Part shown: positions 1 through 4,786 of the stretch, piece after piece | Layout: the number at the start of each line of letters is the position of its first letter | Position numbering within the stretch: the first letter of the stretch is position 1 | From: a virus | Taxonomy: Duplodnaviria; Heunggongvirae; Uroviricota; Caudoviricetes | Length of the DNA: 4,786 bases | IMG/VR virus record: IMGVR_UViG_2565956721_000003 | Direction: 5' to 3' (one strand) | Position numbers and translations under genes: made by a program | The notes under the pieces: model-generated | Told to the model about the DNA's origin: nothing | The model's database searches: none | What the model saw: only the letters and a program-made list of their open reading frames with translations

Positions 1-555
1 AAGCAGAAAAAGCTTATTATGCTTCCATCGGAAACGATGATCTGGCAGCCTGAGTTCACAGATAAAACACTCTCCAGGAAACCCGGGGCGGTTCATTAGA
101 TGCTTTTTGCTGACTAGCATATTTACAGCATCACGAAGCGGAGTCCTGTCATCAACAGATGTTTTCTTCCGTGCATTTGCTGCCTCTCCCTTTGTCCAGT
201 AGTCATGCAGCACAGTAAAGCATTCTTCCTGGTACTGAATCAGTTTATCGCGGATGTCAGCACGAACTTTCTCAGGGTTGATGCTGAACAGCCATCCATT
301 TAACTTCTTCAAAGGAAGGCAGAGTAGCTTACGAAGCTTACCATCAGCGGCAACCATGTTCATATGAACACAGTTGAATTTGCTAATCTGCTTCATGAGT
401 TTTGTTTGCTGCGTTGACCAGCTCATTCCGAGGTTTTCAACGATTGGCTTCATCGCAACATATGCAACTCCGGCAGCCATGGCGGTGATAATTTGCTGAC
501 CGTTGAATGGCACGTAAGAGGTGTTCACTGCTTCTAAAATTGCTATACTATTCAT
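1..555 (-). CDS. ant: Phage antirepressor Ant (AntA-type N-terminal domain); 5' portion only, gene continues past the window start
   Basis: Minus-strand frame is open from the ATG at 555-553 to position 1 (185 codons, no stop), translated by hand as [60 protein letters not shown]...[20 protein letters not shown] lies about 10 nt upstream of the ATG. The N-terminus matches my recollection of P22 Ant and AntA-domain antirepressors, and the gene sits downstream of an arc-like gene as in P22 immI. Not in the ORF track because it runs off the window edge. Confidence 0.8.
541..549 (+). promoter_or_regulatory. Candidate extended -10 promoter (TGcTATACT) firing antisense to the ant start; possible Psar analogue
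   Basis: Plus strand 541-549 reads TGCTATACT, a TGn + TATAAT-like hexamer with one mismatch. No good -35 was found. A start about 7 nt downstream would fall at about 556, opposite the ant ribosome-binding site. Confidence 0.3.
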
Positions 556-637
556 GTTGGTTTTTCTCCACGGATTTACCGACAACCGAAGCCCTGACTG
601 TTCCAGCAGTTGGGGCTTCACTGTTTTGATTTCTTTG
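556..637 (+). ncRNA. Candidate small antisense RNA (sar-like) complementary to the ant ribosome-binding site
   Basis: A candidate promoter at 541-549 and a plus-strand hairpin with T-run at 588-637 bracket a roughly 70-80 nt transcript antisense to the ant Shine-Dalgarno and start codon. In phage P22 a 68-69 nt antisense sar RNA from the arc-ant intercistronic region is established. Inference from sequence signals only. Confidence 0.35.
588..637 (+). terminator. Plus-strand intrinsic terminator-like hairpin followed by a T-rich tract
   Basis: GAAGCCC (588-594) pairs with GGGCTTC (613-619), with possible inner CTG/CAG pairs, followed by ACTGTTTTGATTTCTTTG (620-637). On the minus strand the same hairpin is not followed by a T-run, so the signal is orientation-specific. 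Confidence 0.4.
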
Positions 638-787
638 CCGCATCAAGCATCACTTCTGAAAACGTGCGCTTGCCACTGAATACTCTTTCTCTTCTCAATT
701 TTTCGTTCGTGCCAAATGATTCGCCATGAACAAAATTTGGTCTTAAAATGGTAATCGCAATCTCTTTGACTACTGCATCCAAGCGAA

Positions 788-940
788 TCACACCGTTACC
801 CCCTCTCTCTTCAGGCTGTCTATCAGGCGCTTGATAACCTCTGAGTTAAACGACCTGCACTCTTCCTTTGCCCTGCTACCGATAGCATCCTTTAACGACT
901 GCGGCATCCTTACCAAAATCTTACTTATTTCTTTCTCCAT
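788..940 (-). CDS. arc: Arc-like ribbon-helix-helix repressor (50 aa)
   Basis: Within track ORF 788..976 the likely start is the internal ATG at 940-938, preceded by GGAGGG with 5-nt spacing. Product MEKEISKILVRMPQSLKDAIGSRAKEECRSFNSEVIKRLIDSLKREGVTV has the size and the 'xxRSxNSE' core of P22 Arc (NGRSVNSE in P22) and lies immediately upstream of ant. Confidence 0.8.
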   Translation of the reverse strand: MEKEISKILVRMPQSLKDAIGSRAKEECRSFNSEVIKRLIDSLKREGVTV

Positions 941-976
941 GTTACCCTCCACGCAAACAACTCTTTTCGAATACAA

Positions 977-1041
977 AAGATAGCAAAGTGAGTATATCTA
1001 GTCAAAATTTTTTTGCATACACTTTGCTATCAAATTGAATA
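977..1041. promoter_or_regulatory. Divergent arc/ant (Pant-like) and mnt (Pmnt-like) promoter region with a perfect 12-bp inverted repeat, candidate operators
   Basis: Minus strand: TTGACT (complement of 1000-1005), 17-bp spacer, TATCTT (complement of 977-982), a good sigma70 match about 35 nt upstream of arc. Plus strand: weaker TTTGCA/TTGCAT (1012-1018) and TTGAAT (1035-1040) upstream of mnt. GATAGCAAAGTG (979-990) and CACTTTGCTATC (1020-1031) are exact reverse complements 29 bp apart; one half overlaps the Pant -10 and the other lies in the Pmnt spacer. Confidence 0.5.
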
Positions 1042-1054
1042 CCAAAGGTGTTAT

Positions 1055-1303
1055 ATGGCAAAGGGTGTGTCAATTTCTCCAACTACGGTAAGAATCCCTG
1101 AATCTTTACGCGAGGCTCTTGCTGTCAGAGCATCAAAAAATGGTCGCTCTGTTAACTCCGAGATCGTCATGATTTTGCAAGCCGCGATTGATGAAGATAG
1201 GTCGCCAAAGTCAGTTGAGTCATTTGCTCAGCAAGAAGCTGATAAATTCAAAGAGGCGCTACTTGAGACGCTAAAGACCATGTATGCTAAGGATGAAAAA
1301 TAA
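1055..1303 (+). CDS. mnt: Mnt-like ribbon-helix-helix repressor (82 aa)
   Basis: Within track ORF 1013..1303 the likely start is the ATG at 1055, with AAGGTG 4-5 nt upstream. Product MAKGVSISPTTVRIPESLREALAVRASKNGRSVNSEIVMILQAAIDEDRSPKSVESFAQQEADKFKEALLETLKTMYAKDEK matches P22 Mnt in length (82 aa), in the NGRSxNSE motif and in the C-terminal TLKxxYxK segment. It is divergent from arc as in P22 immI. Confidence 0.8.
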   Translation: MAKGVSISPTTVRIPESLREALAVRASKNGRSVNSEIVMILQAAIDEDRSPKSVESFAQQEADKFKEALLETLKTMYAKDEK

Positions 1304-1837
1304 TGCTGCACACAATTCATTTCTTATGCCCTGTTAACACTGCCACTGTTGGGCAACTTCAGAACCACTGTCTCACCGCATTATCTCAAGGCGCAACTGA
1401 ATTAAATATCCATATATCAAGTCAGGGAGGGGAAACTGCTTGGCTTTACTGCGTATAACTTTCTTAAGTCACTCCCTGTTACCGTTAGAACTCACAACAT
1501 AAGCAATGTTGAATCCATAGCTAATATCGTTTTCCTGGCTGGCTCAGAACGTTTCGCAAACCCATTATCAAGATTCCTGTTACATCCTCTATTATGGTGC
1601 TTTGCCTCCCCAGCCGCCGACCATGCCAGATTGAGAGAGTACGGGAAATGCCTCGATAACGATCTTGATCGCTTCGTTGAGACGTTCAATATCGACATCG
1701 GAACCCATATTAGGTGGGCATCCCTGATAGCAGACTCGACCATTTTGGATGCTAACAAGGCTCTTGAGCATGGCATAATTAATTCCATAAAAACTGCAAG
1801 GCTGGCATCCAATCAGGCAAACTGGTGGGTTGTTTGA
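1303..1837 (+). pseudogene. ClpP-like (S14-type) serine protease gene, start overlapping the mnt stop (TAATG), interrupted by a single-nucleotide frameshift near 1440-1441
   Basis: Frame 1 (1303-1458) gives MLHTIHFLCPVNTATVGQLQNHCLTALSQGATELNIHISSQGGETAWLYCV*. Frame 2 (open 1406-1837, includes track ORF 1631..1837) gives ...GFTAYNFLKSLPVTVRTHNISNVESIANIVFLAGSERFANPLSRFLLHPLLW...DANKALEHGIINSIKT.... Joined, this aligns with remembered E. coli ClpP across [47 protein letters not shown] and APEAVEYGLVDSI, with Ser/His/Asp at the expected triad positions. Removing one T from GCTTGGC (about 1439-1443) restores ...GGETAGFTAY.... Confidence 0.6.
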
Positions 1838-1862
1838 TGGGTAAATCATGATTACTCCTTAT

Positions 1863-1887
1863 AAAAAACCCACCTGACGGTGGGTTT
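1863..1887. terminator. Bidirectional intrinsic terminator between the convergent protease gene and the toxin operon
   Basis: AAAAAA (1863-1868), CCCACC (1869-1874), loop TGAC, GGTGGG (1879-1884), TTT (1885-1887). On the minus strand the stem is followed by six T, so termination is strongest for the minus-strand operon ending at 1886; on the plus strand only three T follow. Confidence 0.6.
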
Positions 1888-2335
1888 AGTCAAACATAGT
1901 GTTTCTAAAGTCTCTCGCATACCCTGCTAACACTCTCATTCTATTATGATTGTTAGCAGACATGTGAGCTACAGGATGAAAAAGAGCAATCAATGAATAC
2001 CTGTTCTCATCAAAAAGATTTTGTGCATAAACGAGAGCGGTATTGGATGTTTTATGCCACTGCAACTTTTGCGGTGTGCTGATATCTGTGCCATTTTTTA
2101 TTGGCTCAAATTTATTTTCACCAATTGCTAAATGAAGGTGCATAAGGCCTGCATCTTCAATATCAGGAGGTCGATGATAAGAGGTGTCTCTGCCAAAATA
2201 GCTGGGCAACGTTCCCGTAGACTTGTAGATGATAAAATCATCTACAAGTGTTTGTTTTAAATCAGGAAACTCAACAAAAACCGGGGAGAAAAAATAGTCA
2301 AAACTATCCTGATTATATTCCACGGTTACTTGCAT
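1886..2335 (-). CDS. YafO-family toxin (ribosome-dependent mRNA interferase family), 149 aa
   Basis: Track ORF 1886..2335. FIIYKSTGTLPSYFGRDTSYHRP, LMHLHLAIGENKFEP and ALVYAQNLFDENRYSLIALFHPVAHMSANNHNRMRVLAGYARDFR align with E. coli YafO as I recall it (FISYKRDGVLPDIFGRDALYDDS, VAHIHLANENNPFP, HLVYCQGAFDEQAWLLIAILKPEPHKLARDNNQMHKIGKMAEAFR). The ATG at 2335 is 8 nt after the upstream gene's stop, with GAGG overlapping that stop. Confidence 0.8.
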   Translation of the reverse strand: MQVTVEYNQDSFDYFFSPVFVEFPDLKQTLVDDFIIYKSTGTLPSYFGRDTSYHRPPDIEDAGLMHLHLAIGENKFEPIKNGTDISTPQKLQWHKTSNTALVYAQNLFDENRYSLIALFHPVAHMSANNHNRMRVLAGYARDFRNTMFD

Positions 2336-2343
2336 GTTTTACC

Positions 2344-2910
2344 TCAGTGGAAGTTACCAGAGTGAAACACACGAGTCCCGTGCTCAGCAAGCGCACGCAA
2401 ACCAGCCATATCTACGGAACTATCAAAAACAACCGGAACACATGAGCGTTGTTTAATAAGACTATTCAGGTTGGTTACGGCAGATCTGGCATCAGCAACA
2501 ACGATATAGATATCTCTTGCGATCTCTTTAAAATCAGCAGAAGCTTCTTTGAATACCGATTTCATTGCCCCTTCAAGTCCTCTCAATTGATGCTCTATCA
2601 ATCGAGACTTTTCTGGTTCAATGATAGACAACACATTGTCTACATTCTCATCGGTAGCGTTTGCAAGAACACGATAAGCGTATTTCAGCATTCGAGACAA
2701 TTCTTTAATCGAAGACACCGCCTCATGAAGCTCATCATTAGCCCGTTCACTGCTGAATGAGGATTGATGGTAAGCGTGCTGAACGTTATCAGTAACAACC
2801 ACCTCACAACTGAACGCAGAAGCTTGCTGTAATAGCAAACCTATTGCGACTCCAGCTTTGGCAGCGTTCAAGCTAAACATTTCATCAATCCCATTAGTCT
2901 CATTGCTCAT
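2344..2910 (-). CDS. Hypothetical 188-aa protein encoded immediately upstream of, and coupled to, the YafO-like toxin gene; candidate atypical antitoxin or partner
   Basis: Track ORF 2344..2940; preferred start is the ATG at 2910-2908, preceded by AAGGAGG with 5-nt spacing (the track's Met at 2940 is a TTG with no RBS). Product MSNETNGIDEMFSLNAAKAGVAIGLLLQQ...GLRALAEHGTRVFHSGNFH has no recognisable RHH or HTH N-terminus and no family I can name. It is roughly twice the size of the known YafO partner YafN (97 aa). Confidence 0.7.
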   Translation of the reverse strand: MSNETNGIDEMFSLNAAKAGVAIGLLLQQASAFSCEVVVTDNVQHAYHQSSFSSERANDELHEAVSSIKELSRMLKYAYRVLANATDENVDNVLSIIEPEKSRLIEHQLRGLEGAMKSVFKEASADFKEIARDIYIVVADARSAVTNLNSLIKQRSCVPVVFDSSVDMAGLRALAEHGTRVFHSGNFH

Positions 2911-2977
2911 ACAAACCTCCTTCTTATCGGAGATTATCAATAGCTATGCATCCATTGAATACACGCTATGCGCAATA

Positions 2978-3006
2978 AGTTTACGTCACGTGATATCATT
3001 ATGCAA
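2978..3006 (-). promoter_or_regulatory. Candidate sigma70 promoter for the 188-aa/YafO-like operon, with palindromic candidate operator in the spacer
   Basis: Minus strand: TTGCAT (complement of 3001-3006), 17-bp spacer, TAAACT (complement of 2978-2983), about 60 nt upstream of the ATG at 2910. The spacer contains overlapping 8-bp palindromes TCACGTGA (2986-2993) and TGATATCA (2991-2998). Confidence 0.35.
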
Positions 3007-3085
3007 CCACCGTTCTATCACCGACTAACTTTACTCCCACTCCTATACATCATCTGGTATCCTGCGCAAAACTAAGGAGGTTGGT

Positions 3086-3436
3086 GTGAATGCTCAGTCT
3101 GTCATCATGGTTTTCCTTGGGCTGATTGTCGCAAAACTATATCCAGACTGGTGGAAAGGGGCATTAGCTACTGTCGCCATCTATTTGCTTTTATCCATCG
3201 TTAAGCGATCACTCGCTGAGACCGTAAATCAAGCAAAACGTTTCTCATTTAAGAGTTTAATAAACTATGTTACTGGGCTTATTTTTTGCCTTTCAATTCT
3301 GATCGCTTCGGCTTTTTTGCCCGTATCAATAGCTAATTTTTTTGGCGCACCATATGAGGTAGGTTATCTATTCTCTGTTTCCTGTCTTGCCATTGCTCTT
3401 CTTTACCTGTGGACGAGATCAAAGAATAAAAATTAG
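3086..3436 (+). CDS. Small integral membrane protein (116 aa, about four predicted TM helices); candidate superinfection-exclusion or abortive-infection effector
   Basis: Track ORF 3086..3436 with GTG start and AAGGAGG (3074-3080) at 5-nt spacing. Four hydrophobic stretches (SVIMVFLGLIVAKLY, GALATVAIYLLLSIV, LINYVTGLIFCLSILIASAFL, YLFSVSCLAIALLYLW) and a basic C-terminus RSKNKN. It occupies the position between mnt and gene 16 where P22 carries sieA; I could not confirm sequence similarity to SieA from memory. Confidence 0.65.
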   Translation: MNAQSVIMVFLGLIVAKLYPDWWKGALATVAIYLLLSIVKRSLAETVNQAKRFSFKSLINYVTGLIFCLSILIASAFLPVSIANFFGAPYEVGYLFSVSCLAIALLYLWTRSKNKN

Positions 3437-3453
3437 CCATCCGTGGCTGCCAG

Positions 3454-4691
3454 TTATTGAGCTTCTTTTTGTGATGCCTGTGCGACTCTGGTGAGCGATT
3501 GTGTGACCGTACTGATCGCTCTGTCATATGCTGTGCTACCTTTTGGCGTATTTGCCAGACGTAACAAGGCATTTCGTATAACAGGGCTTTCGTATGCCTT
3601 CGCAGCTCCTCCTACGACACCAGCAGCAGGAACAACAAACGCAGCCGTTTTTAGCATCCCCGCTAATACTGCTGCGTTTATGATGCCACCACCAACTAAC
3701 AATCCATAAAGCTGCTGACCATTTAAGTTTTGAACGTTCGCTTTTGCCGCGTGTCTTGTATCGTTGAGGTATTTAATAACGCCGTCCAGTTCCTTTCCAT
3801 GTACGCCTTTAAAGAAAGTTGCTGATTGCTTCCTGTTCCGGTGTAACGCATTAATAAACTTTTCAACACTAATATTTCCAGACGGATCAGTCGCCTTATC
3901 TACAGCATTCTGAACTATGGCTGCTCGTGCGTTTTGCCTACCATTGTCATCCAGAAGCCTGTAAAGCTGAGAACGTTCTGATGGGTTTTGGCTAAAAACG
4001 AGTTTTGTTACATCCTCAGGTGTAGCCTTGCCGCTGGCTATTGCCTTTTGAACGCGCGTTCTTCCCATCATGTCATTGAATCTAGCCCATGAGCGATCAA
4101 CCCTAGACATATTGGCAGCTTCTTCTGAGCCTAGTTTTTGGGATACTGCTTTTTTCATATCCGCTGTATATGCCTTGTAGACAATATCGCTGGCTTTCTG
4201 GAGCGTGTCTTTATCAACAGTCTCGTTTGAATTCATGAACCGCTTTCGAAGGTCAGTTCTGTTTTCTCTCGCCAGACGCAGGTCATTGGGTCCGCTGGTG
4301 ATATCGTCTTTAAATTGCTGCAAGACTTTTACCGCGGCTCTATCCTGAGATTTGCCCGGGCGGCTTAACACGGCAATCTGATTGTCGATAGCTTTTACCG
4401 TGTTTGAGAGATCGACAGGGGTATCCCCCATAGCGTCAATTATGCGGTTATATCGCTTTCCTGCTGCCTCAATGAATTTTTGTTGCCCTTTAGTCGCAGA
4501 TTCATAAAGCTGTTTATCAGAAATGCCACCCAGACCATCGCTAAATGTTCTGACTAAATTTTCTCGTGCTTGTTGTTGATTCAGCCGATTCTTACCGGTT
4601 CCAAAAAAAGGAACTCTTTCGCCTAATGTCTGAGCCTGACTCTGCATAAAGGTTTTATCTTTCAGCGTGTCACTGGTCATTAACGGCAGGT
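3454..4691 (-). CDS. Phage late protein, probable DNA ejection/injection protein (P22 gp16-like by position), 3' portion; 5' end interrupted by an IS element
   Basis: Track ORF 3454..4680 (408 aa). The frame stays open upstream of the ATG at 4680 through the IS boundary and stops only at 4717-4719 inside IS sequence, so the native N-terminus is missing. A glycine-rich hydrophobic segment (GLLVGGGIINAAVLAGMLKTAAFVVPAAGVVGGAAKA) sits near the C-terminus. Assignment to gp16 rests on synteny with P22 (gene 16 lies next to the sieA/mnt side of immI) and on the size deficit (about 410 of roughly 600 aa). Confidence 0.5.
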
Positions 4692-4786
4692 TGAACCGCC
4701 CCGGGAATCCTGGAGACTAAACTTCCTGAGAAAGAGGTAAACAGGATGACTAAAAATACTCGTTTTTCCCCCGAAGTCCGTCAACG
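4692..4786 (+). mobile_element. IS3-family insertion sequence (IS629/IS1203-like), left terminal inverted repeat and start of orfA; continues beyond window
   Basis: TGAACCGCCCCGGGAATCCTGGAGACTAAAC... from 4692 matches the IS3-family left end as I recall it (TGA terminus), followed by AGAGG and the ATG at 4746. Confidence 0.65.
4746..4786 (+). CDS. IS3-family transposase OrfA, N-terminal 13 codons only
   Basis: Translation MTKNTRFSPEVRQ(R) matches the OrfA N-terminus of IS629/IS1203-type elements from memory. AGAGG lies upstream of the ATG. Confidence 0.65.
   Translation, partial: MTKNTRFSPEVRQ

Follow-up and report, generated by a model that had tools for sequence, protein, structure and literature searches.

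The window analysed here, the whole 4,786-bp stretch presented under the IMG/VR virus record IMGVR_UViG_2565956721_000003, comes from the "ant moron" (immI region) of a P22-like prophage and lies between the ends of two IS3-family insertion sequence (IS) elements. Directly downstream of an mnt-like repressor gene it contains a gene for a ClpP-like protease (1303-1837), whose reading frame is broken. The gene was interpreted, with slightly more confidence than doubt, as a conserved accessory ("moron") gene of prophages that has been inactivated in this copy, the deletion being a recent and genuine decay event. The two genes and the lesion are located as follows (coordinates of the window; aa, amino acids):

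1055..1303, plus strand: mnt-like ribbon-helix-helix repressor gene, 82 aa (Pfam Arc, E = 9.5e-11; start as given for Escherichia coli APEC O1 by the Prokaryotic Genome Annotation Pipeline, PGAP).
1303..1440, plus strand: ClpP-like gene, 5' segment in the original frame, residues 1-46.
1440..1441, plus strand: position of the 2-bp GC deletion, directly behind the SSxGG(E/D) loop; the intact relatives have ACTGCT-GC-TGGC here (Ala46-Ala47).
1441..1837, plus strand: ClpP-like gene, 3' segment, out of frame, residues 48-178, including Ser72 and His95.

When the gene was aligned to its intact counterparts (537 nt) in APEC O1 and phage phiv205-1, the intact ACTGCTGCTGGC was found opposite ACTGCT--TGGC in the window. 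The initial annotation had attributed the break to a single extra T in GCTTGGC; comparison with the intact orthologs showed instead that GC is deleted. Since +1 equals -2, the effect of the deletion on the frame is the same as that of the supposed extra T, and as a result of the misreading the repaired protein proposed there was one Ala short (177 aa instead of 178 aa). Frame 1 (1303-1458) encodes 46 native residues followed by WLYCV and a stop at 1456-1458 (51 codons), and frame 2 remains open until the TGA at 1835-1837. Translation could restart in the 3' frame no earlier than at a TTG at 1631, past the codons of both catalytic residues; with a stop at residue 51 and the first possible restart beyond Ser72 and His95, this copy as written yields no protease. 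Two antisense open reading frames (ORFs) within the gene (1492-1812 and 1592-1849) were disregarded for want of support.

The frame-joined protein was compared with Pfam, and it matched CLP_protease (PF00574) with E = 1.2e-9 and 38.7 bits (cut-off 20.2 bits), the match starting at profile position 37. Both the claim that the two frames together reconstruct a ClpP-like protein and its assignment to the ClpP/S14 family were thus borne out by the profile search of the repaired protein. The intact ortholog is WP_000903306.1 (178 aa). Sixty homologs, aligned over their full length and all with PF00574, were collected from Escherichia, Salmonella, Pectobacterium, Leclercia, Serratia, Providencia, Pantoea, Klebsiella, Citrobacter, Proteus, Rahnella and Chromobacterium. 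Ser72 and His95 were invariant in all 60 and aligned with the catalytic S97 and H122 of E. coli ClpP; Pro96, Asp107, His108, Glu113, Asp121 and Arg124 are among the other invariant residues. According to the profile alignment, the column of the canonical Asp (E. coli D171 in mature and D185 in precursor numbering) is occupied here by Ser146, and by Ala in 35 and Ser in 22 of the 60 homologs. A Ser, His and Asp triad had originally been proposed; the Ser and the His stood, and the Asp did not, given that Asp145, the neighbouring residue taken for it, is present in only 7 of the 60.

The alignment starts with residue 28, which pairs with residue 67 of the E. coli precursor, and by extrapolation the protein would start at about precursor residue 40, and so would be without axial loops. 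Opposite Tyr60 and Tyr62, which in E. coli belong to the ClpX-docking pocket, stand Asn35 and His37. The ratio of nonsynonymous to synonymous substitution rates (dN/dS) was ~0.08 where dS was not saturated, indicating purifying selection. The AlphaFold2 monomer model (mean predicted local distance difference test, pLDDT, 93.9) showed the ClpP alpha/beta fold with its handle helix. By far the best structural match found by Foldseek was PDB 9UXT, with a template-modelling (TM) score of 0.94 and a root-mean-square deviation of 1.5 A, and its sequence also matched (E = 1.6e-35); the canonical ClpPs listed gave TM scores of 0.76-0.85 (about 0.83). PDB 9UXT is ClpP1 of Pseudomonas plecoglossicida (PpClpP1). 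This makes the protein a Ser-His ClpP paralog of the PpClpP1 type with a truncated N terminus, and the family is a new prophage-borne branch of such paralogs. Literature searches on prophage or moron ClpP, on P22-like phages with a Clp protease and on WP_000903306.1 found nothing relevant.

That the break is due to one of two causes named in the initial annotation, recent inactivation or sequence error, was supported. To weigh them, the state of the surrounding prophage has to be considered, and the following features are concerned:

1..95, plus strand: right end of an IS3-family element, with terminus ...CCCGGGGCGGTTCA (terminal inverted repeat read from the sequence); it truncates ant.
96..555, minus strand: 5' part of ant, ended by the IS after 153 of 300 codons (Pfam P22_AR_N, E = 9.3e-46; PHROG 524, "anti-repressor Ant").
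3454..4691, minus strand: 3' part of a gene for a P22-type gp16-like DNA-ejection protein, truncated by the second IS (PHROG 770, "DNA transfer protein", E = 1.6e-124).
4692..4786, plus strand: left end of a second IS3-family element, beginning TGAACCGCCCCGGG..., with the transposase ATG at 4745.

Positions 90-4692 of the window aligned in one block to a prophage of APEC O1 (4,603 bases). At the left edge the homology begins at 90, and the matching records label the junction "IS3 family transposase"; at the right edge it stops at 4692. In APEC O1 ant is intact (903 nt) and the gp16-like gene measures 2013 nt. As both genes are truncated by IS elements in the window, the prophage is defective. 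The IS3-family ends at the two edges share one orientation, and they presumably belong to elements resembling IS629/IS1203.

The deletion was then compared with the available copies of the gene. Of 5426 complete E. coli genomes, 126 carried the segment, none of them with the deletion; among the 25 matches listed, identity was 97.6%, as expected for a 2-nt gap, with no record reaching 99%. A flank-anchored pattern retrieved 45 copies from IMG/VR, of which 44 had the intact 9-nt spacing and one was a base short. Several results weigh against a genuine mutation. The exact 37-mer spanning the lesion was absent from IMG/VR and from the Joint Genome Institute (JGI) metagenomes, the truncated products (51 aa and 68 aa) were not in the gene index, and the allele is thus a singleton in all collections searched (the 126 complete E. 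coli genomes, IMG/VR and the JGI metagenomes). Moreover, the GC deletion between 1440 and 1441 was the sole difference from APEC O1 within the prophage DNA of the 4,603-base alignment, the one further mismatch (window 93) falling inside the IS end; a sequence or assembly error therefore has to be reckoned with. Singleton status fits a very recent mutation and an error alike.

Under the latter explanation the gene is complete (537 nt) in the source genome, and GC is missing only from the deposited sequence. This was regarded as a serious possibility, somewhat short of an even chance, on account of the uniqueness of the allele and of the base-for-base agreement of the remaining 4.6 kb with APEC O1. 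However, the site (ACTGCTTGGC) is not a homopolymer, and no Dam (GATC) or Dcm (CCWGG) motif, the typical sites of systematic indel errors, could be read in the sequence there. The surrounding prophage is also decaying, with two IS insertions, and the same gene has been broken independently and by other means in other strains. In strain FY26 it is disrupted by an IS insertion of the same kind as at the window edges; in one further locus (L072) it is interrupted by ~1.2 kb with a transposase-like ORF, and in another (L084) it is truncated at its 5' end. The reading as genuine decay rests on this setting, a prophage fragment in which the ant and gp16-like genes are both cut by IS elements.

A second frameshift allele was found in an IMG/VR contig (L069, about 1537-1545), where 1 nt is deleted 3 nt from the lesion site of the window, again within the Ala46-Ala47 codons; it counts among the independent disruptions of the gene. 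Complete genomes carry its background allele in intact form, and its deletion is likewise a singleton; the window (-2) and L069 (-1) were the only frameshift alleles found. The chance of two singleton indels within 4 nt of a 534-nt gene is ~2%, a figure judged post hoc. The pair could reflect a mutational hotspot, an error-prone motif, which would favour the artefact, or coincidence. The fold of the DNA around the site was not significant (-3.4 kcal/mol, z = -0.42), and no hairpin that would explain a hotspot was found.

As for the arrangement with mnt, the overlap of the ClpP-like start codon with the mnt stop, reported in the initial annotation, was read directly in the sequence: in TAATG the mnt TAA (1301-1303) and the ATG at 1303 have one A in common. 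A Shine-Dalgarno sequence, AAGGA (1289-1293), is located 9 nt upstream of the ATG within the final codons of mnt (AAGGATGAAAAATAA). Forty-nine loci encoding proteins at least 79% identical were taken as close relatives. An mnt homolog was found immediately upstream in 48 of them, and in nearly all the mnt stop and the start codon have one base in common, which supports the proposed translational coupling to mnt. At least six different alleles of the N-terminal (DNA-binding) part of Mnt occur among these loci (L024-L065). The only part that the alleles have in common is the C-terminal tail, ETLK(T/K)(M/I)Y(G/A)KD(E/D)K, in which the ClpP-like gene has its ribosome-binding site. Joints in the BLAST matches at approximately 1222 and 1263 of the window mark a mosaic boundary inside mnt, so that the Mnt tail and the ClpP-like gene travel as a unit.

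The rest of the immunity region lies to the left of mnt:

618..791, minus strand: 57-aa ORF between arc and ant (PHROG 17642, E = 1.3e-43; "hypothetical protein" in APEC O1).
788..940, minus strand: arc-like repressor gene (Pfam Arc, PF03869, E = 5.1e-12; "Arc family DNA-binding protein" in APEC O1).
979..1031, no strand assigned: arc/mnt divergent control region, with a 12-bp inverted repeat and a leftward promoter-like site (1005-977).

The inverted repeat is perfect, GATAGCAAAGTG (979-990) and CACTTTGCTATC (1020-1031) at a spacing of 29 nt, and it overlaps the leftward promoter-like site. By analogy with P22 immI, it is probably an operator pair for the Arc/Mnt-type repressors of this immunity type. 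The mnt promoter, Pmnt, was not called in a simple promoter and terminator scan of the window. The APEC O1 prophage is inserted at the tRNA-Arg gene beside intS and has an acetyltransferase gene and a tailspike gene, a layout that we take to be that of phage CUS-3 and of the "APEC-1" prophage. The position of mnt, divergent from arc-ant, is the same as in P22 immI (PMC2629481). The "ant moron" of APEC-1 and CUS-3 has been described as a variable region of six genes, and such regions as highly variable and expressed in lysogens (PMC2629481). Within the window, a predicted membrane protein of 110-116 aa (3086-3436, plus strand), with no family match, holds the position that sieA has in P22, flanked by gene 16 and by the mnt side of the ant moron; it is a candidate superinfection-exclusion gene or other lysogen-expressed gene.

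The gene is not rare, contrary to the suggestion in the initial annotation that a ClpP-like protease at such a site is unusual: the exact intact protein WP_000903306.1 was found on at least 1000 contigs, and the segment in ~2% of complete E. coli genomes. Among sequenced phage isolates only six carry the gene, all of them P22-like phages of E. coli. The intact ortholog of phiv205-1 (MN340231; 3304-3840 of locus L002) is labelled "head maturation protease"; four other phage records give "hypothetical protein", and in phage E212 the gene is unannotated. The annotations of the ortholog in phage records are thus inconsistent and probably misleading.

At 52-75% identity, the more distant relatives each stand as a single gene running antisense to the late operon. 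Lambdoid prophages from Klebsiella, Leclercia, one E. coli contig and two unassigned assemblies have it between lysis cassette and terminase genes, and a relative from Chromobacterium is situated between tail-fibre and lysis genes. These positions are classic moron sites, and mnt, arc and ant are not near, from which it follows that the function is not specific to immI regulation. Together, the conserved contexts fit a lysogen-expressed accessory gene. In the lambdoid prophages of E. coli (L095-L102), a gene for a 182-aa protein (5374-5922) precedes the 52%-identical ClpP-like gene (6001-6558) on the same strand. The 182-aa protein has a sub-threshold match to Abi_2 (E = 0.042) and an RNKRSH motif (Rx4H, HEPN-like), and it may be an abortive-infection gene in the same moron slot.

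The genes that follow the ClpP-like gene in the window are these:

1866..1887, no strand assigned: hairpin with a 9-bp stem and a 4-nt loop, AAACCCACC TGAC GGTGGGTTT, found by a repeat finder between the convergent clpP-like and yafO-like genes.
1886..2335, minus strand: YafO-family toxin gene (Pfam YafO_toxin, E = 3.4e-22).
2344..2910, minus strand: gene for a 188-aa protein, upstream of yafO (PHROG 8416, E = 2.2e-96; no Pfam family).

The hairpin is a probable bidirectional terminator; the simple terminator scan did not call it, and the homologous 42 bp in Salmonella phage Emek lie under "terminator" and "hypothetical protein" features. The toxin gene is preceded by the 188-aa gene and not by a small YafN-type antitoxin gene, an atypical pairing, and the two occur together in 6 of 6 loci. 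Adjacent and convergent as the module is in the window, it had been suggested that the ClpP-like protein could be the dedicated protease of this YafO-type operon, setting the stability of its antitoxin. The proposal did not survive comparison and is now judged very improbable. The yafO and 188-aa module stands downstream of the gene in only 6 of the 49 close relatives, as against 48 of 49 for mnt upstream, which argues against a role in a neighbouring toxin-antitoxin operon. In the rest, as in phiv205-1, unrelated genes are found there; the distant relatives stand alone in other types of prophage, those in lambdoid prophages having no toxin-antitoxin neighbour; and in the window the hairpin terminator separates the two modules.

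A programmed +1 ribosomal frameshift within 1404-1458, which as in prfB would give the full-length protein from the sequence as it stands, was still less credible and is excluded in practice. Its elements would be a Shine-Dalgarno-like GGGAGGGG upstream of the break and CTT-T (1446-1449) downstream of it. However, the reading frame is uninterrupted in the relatives, as the complete genomes (0 of 126 with the deletion) and the IMG/VR copies (44 of 45 with intact spacing) attest, and GGGAGGGG encodes the conserved GG(E/D) loop and is present in intact genes as well. Its distance from the CTT codon is 11 nt; the stimulator of prfB needs a spacing of ~3 nt. Moreover, the codon after CTT is TAC, neither a stop nor rare, and no slippery or stall site was found.

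Least probable of all, to a degree that may be called negligible, is that the gene encodes a displaced ClpP-related prohead (head maturation) protease: the best PHROG match was PHROG 94 "head maturation protease" (E = 4e-18), NCBIfam Clp_rel_HeadMat (NF045542) matched with E = 5.2e-13 and the phiv205-1 record bears that label, but the NCBIfam score of 49.3 bits is far under the 120-bit cut-off, the gene is found in the ant moron or, antisense to the late operon, in lysis-terminase gaps and never between portal and capsid genes, and the nearest structure is a cellular ClpP paralog. P22-type assembly relies on a scaffold and has no prohead protease. That this is not a head-module protease, as first noted, agrees with gene position and NCBIfam score; the prohead proteases share its superfamily and are likewise phage-encoded, and they differ in position, orientation and expression class.

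With these alternatives set aside, the intact family is best considered alongside PpClpP1, the one relative of it to have been characterised, in 2026. As reported for it (PMC12900304), PpClpP1 has an N-terminal truncation and a Ser-His-Pro "triad", forms a homotetradecamer with a 43-A pore, has a peptidase activity ~13-fold below that of its canonical paralog and does not bind ClpX. Together with the canonical ClpP2 it forms a more active mixed 14-mer, to which ClpX is bound through the ClpP2 ring, and its GGE-x-x loop holds the bortezomib-contact residues E45, C46 and S47 (PMC12900304). The prophage protein shares with PpClpP1 a length of ~180 aa, the lack of N-terminal axial loops, the retention of Ser and His and a non-acidic residue at the canonical Asp position (Pro in PpClpP1, Ser here and Ala/Ser in the family). 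The GGE loop beside the active site is conserved as well, and it is in this loop that the deletion of the window falls. The 14-mer, the pairing with a canonical ClpP and the weak peptidase activity have been demonstrated for PpClpP1 only.

Compared with canonical ClpP (E. coli; MEROPS S14; PF00574), the fold including the handle helix is the same (TM about 0.83) and Ser and His align, whereas the first 39 precursor (25 mature) residues have no equivalent, identity is ~20%, Asp171 is replaced by Ser (Ala in the family) and the docking Tyr60 and Tyr62 are replaced by Asn and His. Second ClpP isoforms that work only in mixed barrels are known from Listeria monocytogenes (ClpP1, Ser-His-Asn), Pseudomonas aeruginosa (ClpP2) and Mycobacterium tuberculosis (ClpP1P2) (PMC12900304). 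They are alike in concept, being divergent, of low activity and dependent for their function on stacking with a canonical isoform, and PDB 4RYF and 4U0G were among the fold matches of the model. They are, however, encoded by the host, and a pairing of the prophage protein with host ClpP is proposed by analogy.

In its genomic position the gene resembles the cargo genes that other P22-like phages carry in the ant moron and in the slot downstream of mnt (sieA and orf59a in P22, a 139-aa gene in prophage Gally). They share with it a variable slot, expressed in lysogens, that extends from gene 16 to the tailspike gene (PMC2629481; PMC9928086). The proteins themselves are unrelated, SieA being a membrane protein that blocks DNA injection. 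In the P22-like prophage Gally of E. coli LF82, a different 139-aa gene lies directly beside mnt; in macrophages mnt was up 40-fold and the five rightmost prophage genes were up 6- to 40-fold (PMC9928086). Since the gene behind mnt differs, these RNA sequencing (RNA-seq) data inform on the mnt neighbourhood only.

Because its start codon overlaps the stop of mnt and the final codons of mnt hold its ribosome-binding site, the ClpP-like gene is expected to be expressed from the mnt transcript, and for the intact gene this would take place in lysogens, judging from what is known of P22 and from the Gally RNA-seq. The protein would assemble into ClpP-like rings which, lacking axial gating loops and the docking-pocket Tyr residues, could presumably not be driven by an unfoldase on their own. 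The most probable mechanism, by analogy with PpClpP1, would be that it stacks on the host ClpP heptamer and changes the output of ClpXP/ClpAP in the lysogen; alternatively, it may act as a weak, ungated peptidase. The pay-off may be lysogen fitness, control of induction or phage exclusion. It is accordingly a tentative proposal, drawn from analogy and rather doubtful as a whole, that temperate phages of Enterobacterales carry an unfoldase-blind truncated ClpP as lysogen cargo that would stack on host ClpP to retune ClpXP/ClpAP proteolysis.

Three points count against this proposal. In the structural alignment, the protein is only 38% identical to PpClpP1. PADLOC-DB 2.0 gave no defence model match for the ClpP-like protein or for its 52%-identical E. 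coli relative. Furthermore, PpClpP1 was considered as a prophage-borne gene and this was rejected: the Pseudomonas genes of its type (L115-L118) are chromosomal, unlike the prophage cargo here. These genes are consistently flanked by genes with KGG-repeat and DUF6555 domains, a context for which term searches of PMC12900304 returned no discussion.

The copy in the window is an ordinary pseudogene or a sequence error, and the frameshift itself, a private lesion or an error in a decaying prophage, is of little importance. The family is a moderately interesting, uncharacterised lysogen cargo. It is worth recording as a conserved ClpP paralog under purifying selection, carried by the above fraction of complete E. 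coli genomes and by many other Enterobacterales prophages, always in positions typical of lysogen-expressed cargo. If stacking on host ClpP is true, altered stress or RpoS physiology, altered prophage induction or the exclusion of superinfecting phages might result, and the two singleton frameshifts in the same codons might reflect selection for, or a hotspot of, inactivation. The family would then represent a new class of prophage host-manipulation or defence gene, and, if the prophage version pairs with the housekeeping ClpP as PpClpP1 does with its partner, phages would gain a direct handle on the main degradation machine of the host.

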